Shown here piece by piece: positions 46,807 to 52,372 of a stretch of 64,000 bases of DNA; the first letter of the stretch is position 1, and every line of letters begins with the position of its first letter. The stretch is from positions 930,001 to 994,000 of the forward strand of contig CP060754.1 of the NCBI GenBank assembly GCA_023205875.1. The letters run 5' to 3'. Both the position numbers and the translations under genes were made by a program. The notes below the pieces were generated by a model. It made no database searches. It was not told the origin of the DNA and worked only from the letters and a program-made list of their open reading frames with translations. The stretch is from Chloropicon primus (lineage: Eukaryota).

Positions 46807-47457
46807 ATGGAGTCCGAGAGAAGATCCACCATGTCCAGCCTCAAGGGACAGTTGTCCAACGTCGAGGGCTCTGTCAAGAGCATGAAGGCCGCCGTCGTTG
46901 TCGGTTCCGTCTTGACCGTTGCCTGCTTGGCCGCCGTCTTCGGAGTCACCATCCTCGCCAACGAGGTCTCCAAGGAGGTTAAGGTTTCCAACGGAACCCT
47001 CACCGCCAAGAACGGACAGGCTGTCTTGACCACCAACTTGCGTGCCTCTCTCAAGGCCTCCGGAGATGTCAAGTCTGTTTCTCTTTCTGAGGATAACATG
47101 GTCGCTACCTTCGCTGTCAACGCTGTTGTCACCGAGGGAACCAAGACTACCTTGATCTGCGACGACGTTGTCGTGACCCAGCAGAACGGTGTTTCCAACG
47201 TCCAGCTTACTAAGGACTCCATCTTGAGCGCCGTGCTCTCTGGGGACTCTATGGAGAAGAGAAGCTTGAGCTGGAAGTGCATCTTTGATGATAACCCTAT
47301 CGAGGCGTGCGTTACCGGTGTTCTTCAGGATATTGTCTTCGCTGGCTATGACATGGTCTGGGACTACTTCAGCGAGAACTACGAGGAGATGCTCGAGTAC
47401 GCTGCTTCTCCTGGCGCTGCCGCTGGCGCGAGGTGCGGCGTGGCTTGCGGAAGATAA
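46807..47457 (+). CDS. Putative secreted peptide precursor, copy 1 (TM anchor, pro-region, EKR, acidic 64-aa peptide)
   Basis: 216-aa ORF with strong codon bias; first ~77 aa near-identical to four paralogues. Confidence 0.85.
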   Translation: MESERRSTMSSLKGQLSNVEGSVKSMKAAVVVGSVLTVACLAAVFGVTILANEVSKEVKVSNGTLTAKNGQAVLTTNLRASLKASGDVKSVSLSEDNMVATFAVNAVVTEGTKTTLICDDVVVTQQNGVSNVQLTKDSILSAVLSGDSMEKRSLSWKCIFDDNPIEACVTGVLQDIVFAGYDMVWDYFSENYEEMLEYAASPGAAAGARCGVACGR

Positions 47458-47699
47458 ATCTGTCTTCGCAAAGTAATTCGAGAATTTATCATCTTTGTTA
47501 ATATAATATAACTAAACGAAACTGTGCTGTCGCTATTCTCCCAGACTCTATTGTGTGTGGAAAAAGACAATCCCGAAGAAAACATGGAAATCACGGTTTG
47601 TGCCTCAGTACGGAATAGTTTTAATTTAATAGCAACAATTACTTCTCAATAGTATCATATATTATAAATGGCAAAGGCATAAAAGATAAATTCTTCAAA

Positions 47700-48314
47700 T
47701 TACTTCTTCTGGCTATGGCACCAGACGCCGCACATGGAGATCGTCGCTTCAGTGGTCTTTCCGTGCTCAATGATCTCCTCTCTGTTGTTCCAGAGGTACT
47801 GCTTGAACTTTCCAAGAGCCCACCAGAATGGGTGATAGAATGGAAGGTTCGTGCTTCTCTTCTCGACCTCATCCTGCATGAGGCTGTTCAAGATGGAGTC
47901 CTCAGCGACGGACACCTGGTTGGCACCGTTCTCGCTGACAACAACGAGGTCGTCGCAGATCATGGTGACCTTGGTTCCCTCGGTGACAACAGCGTTGACA
48001 GCGAAGACTCCGCTGGTAGCACCGTTCTTAGAGTTCAAGACCACGGACTCAGTGTTGCTGTTAGCCTTATCGGTGAAGAAGGAGTTGGTGGTCAAGACAG
48101 CCTCTCCGTTCTTGGCGGTGAGGGTTCCGTTGGAAACCTTAACCTCCTTGGAGACCTCGTTGGCGAGGATGGTGACTCCGAAGACGGCGGCCAAGCAGGC
48201 AACGGTCAAGACGGAACCGGCAACGACGGTGGCCTTCATGCTCTTGACAGAGCCCTCGACGTTGGACAACTGTCCCTTGAGGCTGGACATGGTGGATCTT
48301 CTCTCGGACTCCAT
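47700..48314 (-). CDS. Putative secreted peptide precursor, copy 2 (51-aa Trp/aromatic-rich peptide after EKR)
   Basis: 204-aa paralogue; same architecture. Confidence 0.85.
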   Translation of the reverse strand: MESERRSTMSSLKGQLSNVEGSVKSMKATVVAGSVLTVACLAAVFGVTILANEVSKEVKVSNGTLTAKNGEAVLTTNSFFTDKANSNTESVVLNSKNGATSGVFAVNAVVTEGTKVTMICDDLVVVSENGANQVSVAEDSILNSLMQDEVEKRSTNLPFYHPFWWALGKFKQYLWNNREEIIEHGKTTEATISMCGVWCHSQKK

Positions 48315-48720
48315 TATGATTTGGTGTTTGGGTTTGTTGTTTTTGTGTGTGTGTGTGTTTGTACGAGCTCGTGTTCGTAAAAGTGAGGCCCTCTGTGTGT
48401 TGAGTTCGCCTTATATACCCCACTGGGATGAATTAAAATCACAAGAGAGAGCCTGGTGGAAGCTGTGAAAAATAGAAAAAACAATGAACCTCACACGATA
48501 AGGCCTATCATATCATCCGTGAAACTAGTTTCGTTTGAGAGGCACTCTCGTGTGAGTTTCATTTTTTTCTGAAAATAATCACATCGGCTCTTTCTCGTGA
48601 GCCTCTTATCCAGGGGGTATATAAGGCGAAGTCGACCAACAGAGGGCCTCACTTTTACGAACACGAGCTCGTACAAACACACACACACACAAAAACAACA
48701 AACCCAAACACCAAATCATA
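48315..48720. promoter_or_regulatory. Bidirectional promoter between precursor copies 2 and 3
   Basis: Two oppositely oriented TATATAAGGCGAA cores (48411, 48618) flank a central GAAACTAGTTTC palindrome (48521-48532). Confidence 0.7.
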
Positions 48721-49287
48721 ATGGAGTCCGAGAGAAGATCCACCATGTCCAGCCTCAAGGGACAGTTGTCCAACGTCGAGGGCTCTGTCAAGAGCATGAA
48801 GGCCGCCGTCGTTGTCGGTTCCGTCTTGACCGTTGCCTGCTTGGCCGCCGTCTTCGGAGTCACCATCCTCGCCAACGAGGTCTCCAAGGAGGTTAAGGTT
48901 TCCAACGGAACCCTCTCCACCAAGAACGGACAGGCTGTCTTGACCACCACCACCTACACCTCCAACAAGGCTTCTGGTCTTGCCGAGAGCGTGGTCGCTG
49001 ACTTCGGCTCCTTCAACGGAGTCTTCGCTGTCAACGCTGTTGTTACCCAGGGAGCCACCGTCACCACCATCTGCGACGACATCGTTGTCATCGGTGAGGA
49101 GGTCCACGTCCGTGAGGGATCTTTCCTTGACTCTGAGGACAGCTTGGAGCTCAGAAGCCTTAACCAGGACTACGCCAAGAAGTGCAAGAGGAAGCCTAGC
49201 ATGAGAAAGTGCGCCATGGCCGTCATTCAGTGGCTCGTCAAGAAGGGTGCCGCTTGGGCCAGAGAGTGGTTGAAGGAGAACCAGTAA
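48721..49287 (+). CDS. Putative secreted peptide precursor, copy 3 (cationic amphipathic 43-aa peptide after ELR)
   Basis: 188-aa paralogue; same architecture. Confidence 0.85.
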   Translation: MESERRSTMSSLKGQLSNVEGSVKSMKAAVVVGSVLTVACLAAVFGVTILANEVSKEVKVSNGTLSTKNGQAVLTTTTYTSNKASGLAESVVADFGSFNGVFAVNAVVTQGATVTTICDDIVVIGEEVHVREGSFLDSEDSLELRSLNQDYAKKCKRKPSMRKCAMAVIQWLVKKGAAWAREWLKENQ

Positions 49288-49573
49288 ATTACTTCCTTTC
49301 CTAATCCTTAAGGTTTTACTCGGAAGAAATATATAATATACAGTGGAAAGAAATTTCTTAACAAAAGTATCCAAATCAATTATTGCATCTCCAGTCATGA
49401 GAAGAGAAGTATGTGTGCAAGTGCATCGCCTTTAAAGAAGGCTTCCAAAGTACATAACTAATATGTTTTACTGATCGCGGGCTAAGATGGTCACCAACAG
49501 AACTAAATTGTATATCGAAAAAACTGTATATCGAAAAAAACTGTATATTATATGGGTTTCTCATTCAGGTCCT

Positions 49574-50603: not shown

Positions 50604-51123
50604 ATGGTGACGGCGGAAGACGAAGGCACACCGCCCTTGGAAGGGGACACTCCTCTGCCGTGGGACAACGAAGCCTTCCTGACCTACGCTACCTGGGTTA
50701 CCTTTGCTCCGCTACTGGATGTTTTGAGCTGTCCAGAAGCGTACGGAGACGCTATCTTTTTTAATGACTCTCTCTTTCAGGGGAAAGTGGTCTTGGACGT
50801 CGGTTGTGGAGTGCTCGGTTTCTTCGCCGCCTTAGCGGGGGCAAGGAAGGTGTACATCCTGCCAGATACGAAAGAAGAATTCTTTGCCAGGCAGCTCATG
50901 CAGTTCGTGCATGATACCAAATTAGGTGGTGATACCGTCACTGTGTACGACGAGAACATAGCCAAGAAGCAGGACATTCAAGGGAAGGTGGACATCATCT
51001 TGTCCGACTTGGCGGGTGATGTCTGGCTGCAACACTCCAAGATCTACAGGCTTCTGAACGCCAGAGACAGGTACCTCAAACCCAACGGAGCCATGTACCC
51101 TTCTCACTGCAAGGTGTTCCTCG
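50604..51123 (+). pseudogene. Truncated duplicate of the 5' half of the PRMT-like gene
   Basis: Near-identical to 52794-53313, then breaks into the 47-bp repeat and terminates at 51137. Confidence 0.85.
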
Positions 51124-51129
51124 ATTTTC

Positions 51130-51209
51130 TGATTTGATTTTGGTGCATACCAAGGCAATGGGGGTGAAAAGCCTTTTGATTTGATTTTGGTGCATACCAA
51201 GGCAATGGG
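51130..51209. repeat. ~1.7 units of the 47-bp minisatellite
   Basis: Same unit as the 54201-54644 array. Confidence 0.9.
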
Positions 51210-51713
51210 CTTGTCGGGAACAAGCTCCAGAACTTGACCTGGAAGACCGACCTCTCCGCGTGGAACATCTCCGAGGTGAGGGTCCAGGTGCTCTCCATGG
51301 CGATCGAGCGCGAGATGAAGCTGAAGAGCGAACACAGGGAGGTGAGGAAGGCCCTGCTCCTGACGGAGGAGAAGCGGGAGGAGGCCGAGGGCCAGTACAA
51401 GCACGCCATCCAGACCTGCCAGAAACAGATGGAGCTGGCAGCCCAGCAGACGGACGAGCTCCAGGCCAGGCTCGCCGAGAACTTGGCGACCAACGAGTGC
51501 CTCTCCACGGAGGTATTGGAGTACCAGGAGATCAACAAGAGGTCCCACGCCGCCGTGGCTCGCCTCGAGAGGGACGTCAGCACGCTGGAGACCAAGGAGA
51601 GGGACGGCCGACGCAAGTGCGAGGCCTTGGAAGACACCCTCGCCGAGGAGCGCGCCAAGGCCAAGGAGAGGCTGAGGAAGCAAAAGGAAAAGTCCGCTTC
51701 CGAGAACAGGAAG
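51208..51713 (+). pseudogene. 506-bp internal duplicate of the coiled-coil gene at 59047-60936
   Basis: Matches 59534-60039 almost exactly (I saw two substitutions near its left end); has no ATG-bearing 5' part. Confidence 0.9.
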
Positions 51714-51748
51714 GGTTTAGACAATATATAAGATATATTATATCTTCT

Positions 51749-52372
51749 TTAGCCGCAAGCGACACCGCACATGTCCATGGTAGCACTAGATCTCTTTCCG
51801 TAGTCCCAGATCTCCTGTCTGTTGTCCCAGAGGTAGTCATATGCAGCAAAAATAAGCTTCTTGGAGTACTTCTCGCAAGTCTTCTTCCAAGCACCAAACC
51901 AGTTGCACATATTGTTCACGCTTCTCTTCTCGACACTGTCACTCAGGTTGTTCAACATCGAGTCCTCAGTAACCTGGACATCGGTCTCACCGCCCTCCTG
52001 GGAGACAACGACGTCGTCACAGATGAGGGTAAGCTTGGTTCCCTGGGTGACAACAGTGTTGACGGCGAAGGTACCGGTCATGTCCTGATCAGCAAGGGTG
52101 ACAATGGCGGTGGACGTGGAGAACTTTGCGGTGTAGTACATGTTGGTGGTCAAGACAGCCTGTCCGTTCTTGGCGGTGAGGGTTCCGTTGGAAACCTTAA
52201 CCTCCTTGGAGACCTCGTTGGCGAGGATGGTGACTCCGAAGACGGCGGCCAAGCAGGCAACGGTCAAGACGGAACCGACAACGACGGCGGCCTTCATGCT
52301 CTTGACAGAGCCCTCGACGTTGGACAACTGTCCCTTGAGGCTGGACATGGTGGATCTTCTCTCGGACTCCAT
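51749..52372 (-). CDS. Putative secreted peptide precursor, copy 5 (57-aa peptide after EKR, internal GKR, C-terminal Gly)
   Basis: 207-aa paralogue; same architecture. Confidence 0.85.
   Translation of the reverse strand: MESERRSTMSSLKGQLSNVEGSVKSMKAAVVVGSVLTVACLAAVFGVTILANEVSKEVKVSNGTLTAKNGQAVLTTNMYYTAKFSTSTAIVTLADQDMTGTFAVNTVVTQGTKLTLICDDVVVSQEGGETDVQVTEDSMLNNLSDSVEKRSVNNMCNWFGAWKKTCEKYSKKLIFAAYDYLWDNRQEIWDYGKRSSATMDMCGVACG

Follow-up and report, generated by a model that had tools for sequence, protein, structure and literature searches.

A Chloropicon gene family with a uniform 5′ block, a predicted membrane anchor and variable, cysteine-paired C-terminal tails

Five gene copies on chromosome 1

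The DNA analysed here (the window, 64,000 nt in all) is part of chromosome 1 of Chloropicon primus, and its list of open reading frames (ORFs) contains five intronless members of a single family, copies c1 to c5, which encode proteins of 216, 204, 188, 200, and 207 aa. That these are paralogues with a near-identical first ~77 aa, as the original prediction held, is borne out by the ORF list and by an alignment of the first 76 residues, in which c1, c4, and c5 are identical (76/76), c2 has three differences and c3 has two. In the list below the tail is the part that follows the junction Arg; tail lengths and Cys numbers, which agree with those first given, were taken for c3 and c5 from near-identical database proteins (P0008, P0001).

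46807..47457, + strand: c1, 216 aa (ORF list, alignment, AF2 model); constant module, codons 1-77, at 46807-47037; junction R152 at 47260-47262
47263-47454, + strand: c1 tail, 64 aa, 4 Cys
47700..48314, − strand: c2, 204 aa (ORF list, alignment); junction R153 at 47856-47858; tail at 47703-47855 (51 aa, 2 Cys)
48721..49287, + strand: c3, 188 aa (ORF list, alignment); junction E-L-R, R145 at 49153-49155; tail at 49156-49284 (43 aa, 2 Cys)
49574..50176, − strand: c4, 200 aa (ORF list, alignment); junction R152 at 49721-49723; tail at 49577-49720 (48 aa, 2 Cys, hydrophobic start)
50181..51209, + strand: segmental duplicate of the c5 upstream region and the 5′ half of an arginine methyltransferase gene (repeat comparison)
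51749..52372, − strand: c5, 207 aa (ORF list, alignment; AF2 model of the ectodomain); junction R150 at 51923-51925; tail at 51752-51922 (57 aa, 4 Cys)

Copy c5 differs by one residue from A3770_01p05830. Copies c1 and c2 are convergent, with stop codons 242 bp apart, as are c3 and c4 (286 bp), and c2 and c3 lie head-to-head with mirrored promoters. Short ORFs (40-77 aa) that lie between the stop codons of each convergent pair run into the gene ends, and two of them, when compared, proved unrelated; no conserved separate ORF that might be an immunity gene was found in the 242- and 286-bp gaps. The arms of the segmental duplicate (D4; 50181-50480 and 52371-52670) match at 99%, a truncated methyltransferase ORF within it (50604-51137) has its counterpart at 52794-53894, and the duplicate terminates in a fragment of a 47-bp repeat. 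This arrangement shows the route by which c4 arose, namely segmental duplication. Codon bias, used here as a proxy for expression, is stronger in these five genes than anywhere else in the window (ENC 28-32, against 35.7-59 in the other 26 ORFs of at least 250 aa).

A uniform block from the TATA box to codon 77

The likeness among the copies is greatest at their 5′ ends, where it includes the promoter and leader.

46706..47040, + strand: presumed homogenized 5′ block of c1, comprising the TATA box GGGGTATATAAGG, the leader, and codons 1-78
48063-48421 (c2), 48614-48972 (c3), 49948-50341 (c4): equivalent 5′ blocks
46747..46767, + strand: 21-nt leader element TTACGAAC-N5-CTCGTACA, 40 nt upstream of the c1 ATG
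48360-48380 (−), 48655-48675 (+), 50222-50242 (−), 52412-52432 (−): leader element of the other copies

Comparison within the window gave repeat arms of 274-394 nt with 95-99% identity or complementarity; the block of c1 and that of c5 (52139-52473) are complementary at 99%, and c2 and c3 form an inverted repeat (I2) with 359-nt arms that are 95% complementary. The leader element has five matches in the window, all at family copies, where none would be expected. The likeness of the repeat arms and the five leader elements far exceeds chance. The element was also found at 8 of 14 metagenome loci, and alignment shows that it and the TATA box are kept across species.

Synonymous differences in codons 1-76 number zero in all 10 pairs of copies, whereas dS in the middle region is 0.43-1.06. 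This disparity indicates that the block from the TATA box to codon 77 is subject to concerted evolution, with gene conversion as the likely process that holds it identical among copies. Paralogues of other species also have synonymous variants in common with each other.

Extent of the family

A database search returned 262 proteins (sequence clusters) at E ≤ 0.01, so that the family has at least this many members. Those with a species name are all annotated as "hypothetical protein" of C. primus or C. roscoffensis, in line with the proposal of an algal family, and the remainder are unnamed marine sequences. In a deeper clade the tails are long and of Gly-zipper or hydrophobic type. The genes A3770_01p05770-05800 and 05830 are without a hit in 13 other green algae (Supplementary Data 2, PMC6731263), and the searchable passages and supplements of two genome papers do not mention the family. 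None of the five proteins reaches the cut-off of any Pfam family, a profile of 82 members matched no PDB sequence at E ≤ 1, and Foldseek with AF2 models returned nothing at E ≤ 0.001; the VIA-align structure lists were filled by long helices, so that these structure comparisons barely probed the β domain alone. As the original prediction had it, the family matches no known one in these searches and appears to be undescribed, known so far from Chloropicon and unnamed marine sequences only.

The uniform annotation as hypothetical is the sole point in favour of regarding the ORFs as decaying repeats or an annotation artefact. Five intact reading frames with the codon bias noted above, the occurrence of intact relatives by the hundreds, both in the two named species and among marine sequences, and a TATA box and leader element kept across species make that view scarcely credible.

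Predicted anchor and middle domain

The N-terminal module contains an uncharged stretch of 24 residues (mean Kyte-Doolittle hydropathy 2.43) preceded by a charged N-terminus of 27 residues, with K24 and K27 on the N side of the stretch; by hydropathy only, this fits a signal anchor. The proteins are thus predicted to be type II (signal-anchored) membrane precursors, with the N-terminus probably in the cytosol and the rest lumenal or extracellular because the uncharged segment follows a Lys-rich flank. The cytosolic tail and membrane segment are nearly invariant across species, beyond the needs of a plain signal anchor, which speaks against a role as mere anchor and hints that the N module may itself have a function. 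The NGT sequon of the original prediction lies at residues 62-64 of the window copies; as a family trait it holds in part, N-x-S/T being present in 104 of 162 members and absent from the others.

The middle region of the window copies carries the proposed AVNAVV..G....ICDD block, and D119 is nearly invariant. AF2 models this domain as a five-strand β-meander with one short helix (meander pLDDT 83-90). One Cys precedes the junction in 91 of 149 members, none in 38, two in 9, and three in 11.

Variation in the middle domain goes along with variation in the tail (r = 0.45, 5886 pairs), and clean swaps of one against the other at the junction are rare (1 of 109 members). Both regions evolve fast, with dN/dS high in the middle domain as in the tails. 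Such a pattern, together with the lack of a conserved separate ORF between the convergent genes, would suit toxin and immunity cassettes like yeast killer preprotoxins, in which the tail is a pore-former and the membrane-bound pro-domain shields the producer; the co-variation can also be plain shared ancestry, and cassettes of this kind are considered improbable here.

The junction and a candidate protease

The window copies read EKR at the junction, or ELR in c3, as first reported, and in an 82-sequence alignment the R is an invariant column. A junction was called in 128 of 162 members, with V in 84, E in 103, N/S in 105, L/M/V in 109, and N/S/Q in 123; because the calling rule rewards the motif, these counts are partly circular and represent upper bounds, only the invariant R coming from unbiased alignment. 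Position R+2 of the 128 called sites is L in 67, M in 31, V in 11, and I in 1, and T or A also occur; strict Leu at the motif position in only 67 of 128 weighs against an RxLx reading. K directly precedes R in 57 of 107 members, or 46 of 128 in a second tally, and the other residues found there are S, A, T, E, G, D, or L. A conserved Kex2/furin dibasic site is therefore ruled out: the Arg of the proposed Kex2 KR site stands, the Lys is present in about half of the members, and the lack of a conserved canonical kexin site is a point against cleavage.

The junction may be written V-E-x-R-[NS]-[LM]-[NS], and an RxLx (site-1-protease-type) motif appears to fit it better than a dibasic one; in the member L012 it reads RRLL. 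AtS1P/SBT6.1 is described as cleaving RxxL/RxLx (PMC13082318), and A3770_04p31680 of C. primus is listed as a "subtilisin-like protein" with primary KO K08653 MBTPS1 (annotation; Supplementary Data 2, PMC6731263). Two features of S1P substrates are found here, an RxLx-type motif before the putative released fragment and an annotated S1P orthologue in the same species. In the models of c1 and the c5 ectodomain, pLDDT falls below 50 at or beside the junction, between the confident β-meander and the helical tails.

Variable tails

The tails are 42-71 aa long and predicted to form amphipathic helices; the hydrophobic moment lies above the shuffle mean in 91 of 104 non-redundant tails (z > 1.64 in 42), and Trp makes up 5.4% of residues. 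One and the same threshold separates the tails into 49 classes and the middle domains into 10. The claim that the tails are divergent thus holds in that they are much more variable than the rest, although not all are unalignable: c2 and c5 share a class, and c1 and c5 have 19 of 57 aligned residues in common. Diversifying selection, also proposed, is only suggested; a few environmental pairs have dN/dS above 2, and pairwise values for the window copies are 0.5-1.3. Most dN/dS values lie below 1, which speaks against it.

Cys numbers are even in 147 of 149 tails. These even sets, next to the mostly unpaired Cys of the middle domain, point to the tail as an independent disulfide unit.

A 19-residue stretch with transmembrane-like hydropathy occurs in 32 of 149 tails, which, as a point against release, also fits a second anchor without cleavage. 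The proteins might then remain intact at the surface or in endomembranes, N-anchored, and the tail, amphipathic or hydrophobic, would rest on or within their own membrane or one apposed to it; the exposed variable portion would function in recognition, or in evasion or as a decoy against viruses and grazers, and the junction motif would act as a structural hinge. This accords with the long Gly-zipper or hydrophobic tails of the deeper clade, with an N module so invariant that a conserved partner is suggested, with a codon bias that suits an abundant structural protein, and with a high dN/dS in the middle domain, expected of an exposed surface. The idea is held to be somewhat less likely than release. 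Against it, the Cys sets of the tails are self-contained, the linker that contains the invariant R is conserved and modelled with low confidence, as is usual for processing sites, and the other 117 tails are too weakly hydrophobic for membrane spanning.

Another reading takes the proteins for precursors of signalling peptides, of pheromone or chemotactic type, rather than of membrane-active effectors. They would draw on conserved algal peptide-processing machinery of the kind described for Chlamydomonas, from which subtilisin-like convertases, PAM, and processed propeptides are reported. The annotation of C. primus includes a peptidylglycine alpha-amidating monooxygenase (A3770_07p49720) together with subtilisin-like proteases. 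C-termini of the amidation type (G, G[KR], G[KR][KR]) are not enriched, occurring in 14 of 153 members against a shuffle mean of 17.4. Because 49 unalignable tail classes would demand equally many receptors, and amphipathic helices of 42-71 aa are not short ligands, a signalling role of this kind is unlikely.

Comparison with known precursors

The picture that emerges is the one originally drawn, of a multigene family in which the anchor is constant, the β-rich middle and the basic junction are conserved, and the Cys-paired tails are much more variable. In layout it resembles the BRICHOS proproteins (Bri2/ITM2B, proSP-C, polychaete antimicrobial-peptide precursors), which are described as comprising, in order, a cytosolic N part, a type II transmembrane segment, a linker, a β-containing lumenal domain of ~100 aa, and an aggregation-prone or bioactive C-terminal region, and as reported from metazoan phyla only (PMC10182729); polychaete BRICHOS precursors are described as yielding antimicrobial peptides. 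BRICHOS has a conserved Asp and two disulfide-forming Cys, whereas the Chloropicon middle domain has D119 and mostly a single Cys; the BRICHOS sheet is flanked by two helices, in contrast to the modelled five-strand meander with a short helix; and the Chloropicon tails are helical, unlike the β-prone BRICHOS C-terminal regions. The BRICHOS profile in Pfam gave no hit at E ≤ 1 for any of the five proteins, and membership was rejected for want of a profile match and of the intradomain disulfide Cys pair.

Plant proRALF23, described as an S1P/SBT6.1 substrate, likewise has an RxLx/RxxL-type motif just before its C-terminal peptide. The Chloropicon precursors differ from S1P substrates in being membrane-anchored members of a polymorphic multigene family whose cleavage is putative, and most of them lack the second Arg of RRxL. 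The Chlamydomonas amidated chemotactic peptide is described as coming from a secretory precursor cut by subtilisin-like convertases; relative to such peptidergic precursors, the Chloropicon family lacks amidation enrichment, has dozens of tail classes, and is membrane-anchored.

Yeast alpha-factor, killer preprotoxins, conotoxins, and cathelicidins likewise have a constant pre-pro part, a basic processing site, and a mature part that is variable and has paired Cys, and they have diversified as multigene families. Compared with these Kex2/furin prepropeptides, the Chloropicon N module is a long membrane anchor in place of a short signal peptide that can be cleaved off, only about half of the members have K at P2, so that a dibasic site is not conserved, and the constant part is identical at the DNA level, promoter included. 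In CdiA-CT and Rhs polymorphic toxins, a constant N-terminal delivery part and a short conserved demarcation motif precede variable C-terminal modules; the Chloropicon family is eukaryotic, its proteins are small, no conserved adjacent immunity ORF was found, and junction swaps are confined to 1 of 109 members.

Proposed function

The preferred reading, put forward tentatively, is that the family encodes anchored type II precursors likely to be cleaved at the junction, releasing disulfide-paired, amphipathic, membrane-active tail peptides. The β-meander domain would act as pro-region or carrier, and a subtilase would cut at the junction or immediately beyond it, the annotated site-1-protease orthologue (RxLx) fitting best and a mono- or dibasic convertase cleaving after R being the alternative. 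The targets of the freed helical, Cys-bridged peptides would be the membranes of competitors, bacteria, or viruses, and tail diversity would be the selected trait. If the tails are released, they would form an untapped set of ~50 classes of natural disulfide-stabilised helical peptides and imply that a prasinophyte-grade alga uses peptides in warfare or signalling.

A bolder proposal, to which a low probability is attached, is that each gene forms a killer cassette of its own, so that the alga would display or shed dozens of different pore-forming helical disulfide peptides. In each cassette the membrane-anchored pro-domain would chaperone the peptide and protect the producer, and the common promoter and anchor module, likely homogenised by gene conversion, would serve as a launch platform. 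Such a system would be the equivalent, in eukaryotic phytoplankton, of bacteriocins and polymorphic toxins and would influence how an abundant ocean picoalga competes and interacts with microbes.

The Chloropicophyceae have been called key members of the picophytoplankton in moderately oligotrophic oceans (PMC12301720), and the C. primus genome is described as streamlined, with few gene families (PMC6731263). Hundreds of variants, codon bias, a conserved promoter and leader of its own, and a constant-anchor/variable-tail design in such a genome make it likely that the family matters for dealings of C. primus with bacteria, viruses, grazers, or its own kind. The sharp conversion tract would in addition be a clean natural case of partial concerted evolution, in which one half of a gene stays uniform and the other diversifies.

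Organization of the Gene Array

The five intronless paralogues (c1–c5) proposed in the original prediction were found as uninterrupted open reading frames (ORFs), accompanied by two copies of a gene related to protein arginine methyltransferases (PRMT).

Features of the array (coordinates in the window)
46807–47457, + strand: c1, uninterrupted ORF, 216 aa
47700–48314, − strand: c2, uninterrupted ORF, 204 aa
48721–49287, + strand: c3, uninterrupted ORF, 188 aa
49574–50176, − strand: c4, uninterrupted ORF, 200 aa
51749–52372, − strand: c5, uninterrupted ORF, 207 aa
50604–51137: ORF, truncated PRMT-like methyltransferase duplicate, 177 aa
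52794–53894: full PRMT-like methyltransferase gene, 366 aa (Pfam Methyltransf_31 and PRMT_C, both below cut-off)
47715–48380 (+), 48655–49398 (−), 49487–50242 (+), 46659–47282 (−): antisense open frames over family genes, 207–251 aa

The alignment of the five proteins has 86 invariant columns, nearly all within residues 1–77 (the N module), which are followed by a moderately conserved middle region (..AVNAVV..G....ICDD..), then by E-K-R (E-L-R in c3) and finally by divergent tails. The genes form inverted pairs. Copies c1 and c2 converge, their stop codons 242 bp apart, as do c3 and c4 (286 bp), and c2/c3 stand head to head with mirrored promoters (inverted repeat pair I2; arms of 359 nt, 95% complementary). 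Copy c4 evidently arose by a segmental duplication (repeat pair D4), which also took in the upstream region and the 5′ half of the adjacent arginine methyltransferase gene; the A3770 annotation of Chloropicon primus lists both methyltransferase copies as protein arginine N-methyltransferase. The antisense frames contain the mirrored conserved block of the family genes; rather than being genes, they most likely result from the strong codon bias toward C3/G3.

Directly after the arginine methyltransferase gene, a 47-bp unit is repeated in tandem (54107–54739; ∼10 or more copies, 93–100% alike); a fragment of this repeat, at 51127–51209, coincides with the end point of the truncated duplicate (repeat pairs D1/D2). 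Between this truncated copy and c5 is a charged-residue-rich, coiled-coil-like ORF of 144 aa (51297–51731, + strand), which by position matches A3770_01p05820, a hypothetical protein without matches in other green algae. A 681-aa RWP-RK domain protein (44288–46333, + strand; Pfam E 1.7e-12) adjoins the array on its upstream side; passages of the genome paper give nine RWP-RK genes and describe the mating-type locus as not identified (PMC6731263).

A Constant 5′ Block Homogenized at the DNA Level

The DNA of c1–c5 is nearly identical between GGGGTATATAAGG, which lies ∼100 nt upstream of the ATG, and codon 77, where divergence sets in abruptly; the repeat arms of this block measure 274–394 nt at 95–99%. 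Across all 10 pairs of window copies, codons 1–76 hold 0 synonymous and 0–5 non-synonymous differences, and dS in the middle region beside them is 0.43–1.06. Because protein-level constraint alone is unable to remove synonymous change, the constant block is homogenized, probably by gene conversion. Loci of other species (L002–L005, L008) have their own synonymous variants, common to their paralogues, a signature of concerted evolution, and the amino-acid sequence of the N module is almost invariant in every branch.

A TATA-like box and an element, TTACGAAC-N5-CTCGTACA, are kept upstream across species; the element occurs five times in the window, solely before family genes (0 expected by chance), and at 8 of 14 metagenome loci. 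The 5-bp inverted repeat of the leader element is predicted to form a hairpin stem and never varies (leader folding z-score −0.31); it may be either an RNA or a DNA element. Codon bias in the window is strongest in c1–c5, with an effective number of codons of 28.1–32.4 (30.8 concatenated) and C at 51% of third codon positions, as against 35.7–59.0 for the 26 other window ORFs of at least 250 aa, one of which is an antisense frame over c4. This bias suggests very high expression of the five genes.

Distribution of the Family

The window lies on C. primus chromosome 1, and c5 is one residue apart from A3770_01p05830; by gene order only, A3770_01p05770–05800 probably correspond to c1–c4. All these loci are entered as "hypothetical protein" with 0 matches in 13 other green algae (Supplementary Data 2, PMC6731263). 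A profile search returned 262 proteins at E ≤ 0.01; among the 120 matches listed, every named relative is a "hypothetical protein" of C. primus, with locus tags on chromosomes 1, 3, 13, 14, and 16, or of C. roscoffensis, and the remainder are marine sequences on ∼1-kb contigs. On the matches listed in the searches and the comparison with 13 green algae, the family appears so far restricted to Chloropicophyceae. None of the libraries searched recognizes it, and no description was found in the passages and supplements searched: the largest families in the consulted main text of the genome paper are other ones and this family goes unmentioned there (PMC6731263), a term search of a comparative paper returned nothing on it, and three locus tags were absent from one supplement of that paper (PMC12301720).

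A distant branch (locus L012; database proteins P0122–P0163) retains the N module and has E-x-R or R-x-L at the junction, but its middle domains are different and its tails, of 70–150 aa, are hydrophobic or rich in Gly (Gly-zipper-like); in L012 (166–1119) the junction bears a canonical RRLL. The N module was not found on longer proteins (364–2000 aa). A viral origin was considered and is unsupported, as 0 of 34 pattern matches in IMG/VR viral contigs encode a relative. Prokaryote genomes gave a single match, L015 (1–1417), a contig of 1.4 kb assigned to a Myxococcales MAG. On it lie two typical convergent family members, each ending inside the conserved 5′ module at a contig edge; the contig is most likely mis-binned Chloropicon-like algal DNA and illustrates how assemblies break at the repeated 5′ module.

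Membrane Topology and Predicted Fold

Residues 28–51 form a stretch of 24 uncharged residues (mean Kyte-Doolittle hydropathy 2.43), preceded by K24 and K27 and followed by N-E-V-S-K-E. Longer than signal-peptide cores usually are, this stretch is consistent with a type II signal anchor whose N-terminus would be cytosolic. The predicted glycosylation sequon is present in 104 of 162 members but does not hold as a conserved feature of the family.

AlphaFold2 models of whole c1 (mean pLDDT 68, pTM 0.35) and the c5 ectodomain (mean pLDDT 65) agree in their main features. A long helix spans the N module (residues 7–55) and leads through a low-confidence linker to a confidently predicted five-strand β meander (c1 residues 90–134, pLDDT 83–90); confidence is low at or beside the junction (c1 155–161; c5 model 95–105, including the R), and the tail is modeled as two to three helices.

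That the family had not been recognized from sequence was borne out by searches of Pfam, PDB sequences, and Foldseek, in which it had no known-family match. Pfam returned sub-threshold noise only for the c1–c5 proteins, and a profile of 82 members had 0 matches to PDB sequences at E ≤ 1. Foldseek searches of PDB with the two models gave nothing at E ≤ 0.001 (best E 0.33 and 0.19), VIA-align gave generic long-helix matches only (Z about 5, rmsd up to 12 Å), which barely probe the β domain, and the ESM Atlas held no usable match.

Diversity and Properties of the Tails

The even number of tail cysteines noted in the five window copies extends to 147 of 149 tails in the family (0 Cys in 25, 2 in 93, and 4 in 29; odd in 2). 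The ectodomain before the junction mostly has a single Cys (0 Cys in 38 members, 1 in 91, 2 in 9, and 3 in 11), and the tail is therefore likely to be a self-contained disulfide unit formed in an oxidizing compartment. Tail length runs from 42 to 71 aa around a median of 56, Trp accounts for 5.4% of tail residues, and net charge has a median of +2; their maximal helical hydrophobic moment exceeds the shuffle mean in 91 of 104 non-redundant tails (z > 1.64 in 42), and 32 of 149 contain a transmembrane-grade 19-residue stretch. C-terminal amidation signals, also sought, were rejected (14 of 153 members vs. a shuffle mean of 17.4).

At the same similarity threshold the tails fall into 49 classes and the middle domains into 10, with 134 of 149 middles in one class. 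The five window tails make up four classes, with c2 and c5 in a common one. Identity of middle and tail is correlated (r = 0.45). A clean swap at the junction was seen in one of 109 members, the environmental protein P0105. Compared with P0056/P0100 and P0028/P0104, it joins a middle domain from one lineage (identities of 100 and 88%) to the tail of another (92%) and is either a real cassette swap or an assembly chimera; with this one clear case, cassette shuffling was rejected as a general mechanism. Pairwise dN/dS among window copies is 0.56–0.96 in the middle and 0.5–1.28 in the tail, and exceeds 2 in a few environmental pairs. These values are suggestive of either relaxed selection or the diversifying selection originally proposed.

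The Junction and a Candidate Protease

The R at the junction is an invariant column in an alignment of 82 sequences. Flanking residues were counted from motif-guided calls in 128 of 162 members, and the counts are upper bounds since the calling rule rewards these residues.

Residues at the junction (of 128 members)
Position −3: V 84
Position −2: E 103
Position −1: K 46, S 34, A 24, T 10
Position 0: R
Position +1: N 57, S 48
Position +2: L 67, M 31, V 11
Position +3: N 83, S 24, Q 16

A stricter earlier call gave K at −1 in 57 of 107 members. Because K is variable at this position, the Kex2 KR site seen in window copies is not a feature of the family; what appears to be conserved is R-x-[LM]-x preceded by V-E. 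Mammalian convertases cleave at single or paired basic residues, and AtS1P/SBT6.1 and SBT3.5 cut at RxxL/RxLx, which is also the consensus for the site-1 protease of mammals (S1P; passages of a plant subtilase review). In the C. primus annotation, a subtilisin-like protein has MBTPS1 (site-1 protease) as its primary KO, and other subtilisin-like proteases and a peptidylglycine amidating monooxygenase are also present; no primary kexin or furin was found among the entries listed. The junction motif fits S1P better than kexin.

A Possible Membrane-Anchored Precursor

Our tentative reading, held at somewhat less than even confidence, is that these proteins are membrane-anchored precursors of membrane-active tails freed by a subtilase. 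Several features agree with it: a signal anchor is predicted, the lumenal part has a folded domain that could serve as carrier, the invariant Arg lies in a linker that is conserved and probably flexible, and the C-terminal unit is independent, amphipathic, and very diverse, with paired cysteines. Cleavage would take place late in the secretory pathway, and the physical properties of the tails point to membrane activity, in defence or competition. The main rival, which we rate a little below this reading, is that no cut is made and the proteins are abundant components of the surface or endomembranes whose outer end varies. With or without cleavage, the near-invariance of the whole cytosolic and membrane part argues for a further conserved partner. 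That the tails are signaling peptides is improbable, and we would give little credence to a killer/immunity system.

The layouts closest to that of the proposed cleaved precursor are BRICHOS-type type II proproteins and S1P-processed propeptides; unlike BRICHOS proproteins, the family lacks a profile match and a conserved disulfide, and its predicted fold differs. A constant pre-pro region with a variable mature part also characterizes conotoxins, cathelicidins, and fungal killer toxins. The family shares this constant-plus-variable logic but differs from all three in its long membrane anchor, its non-dibasic site, and the homogenization of promoter and anchor at the DNA level.
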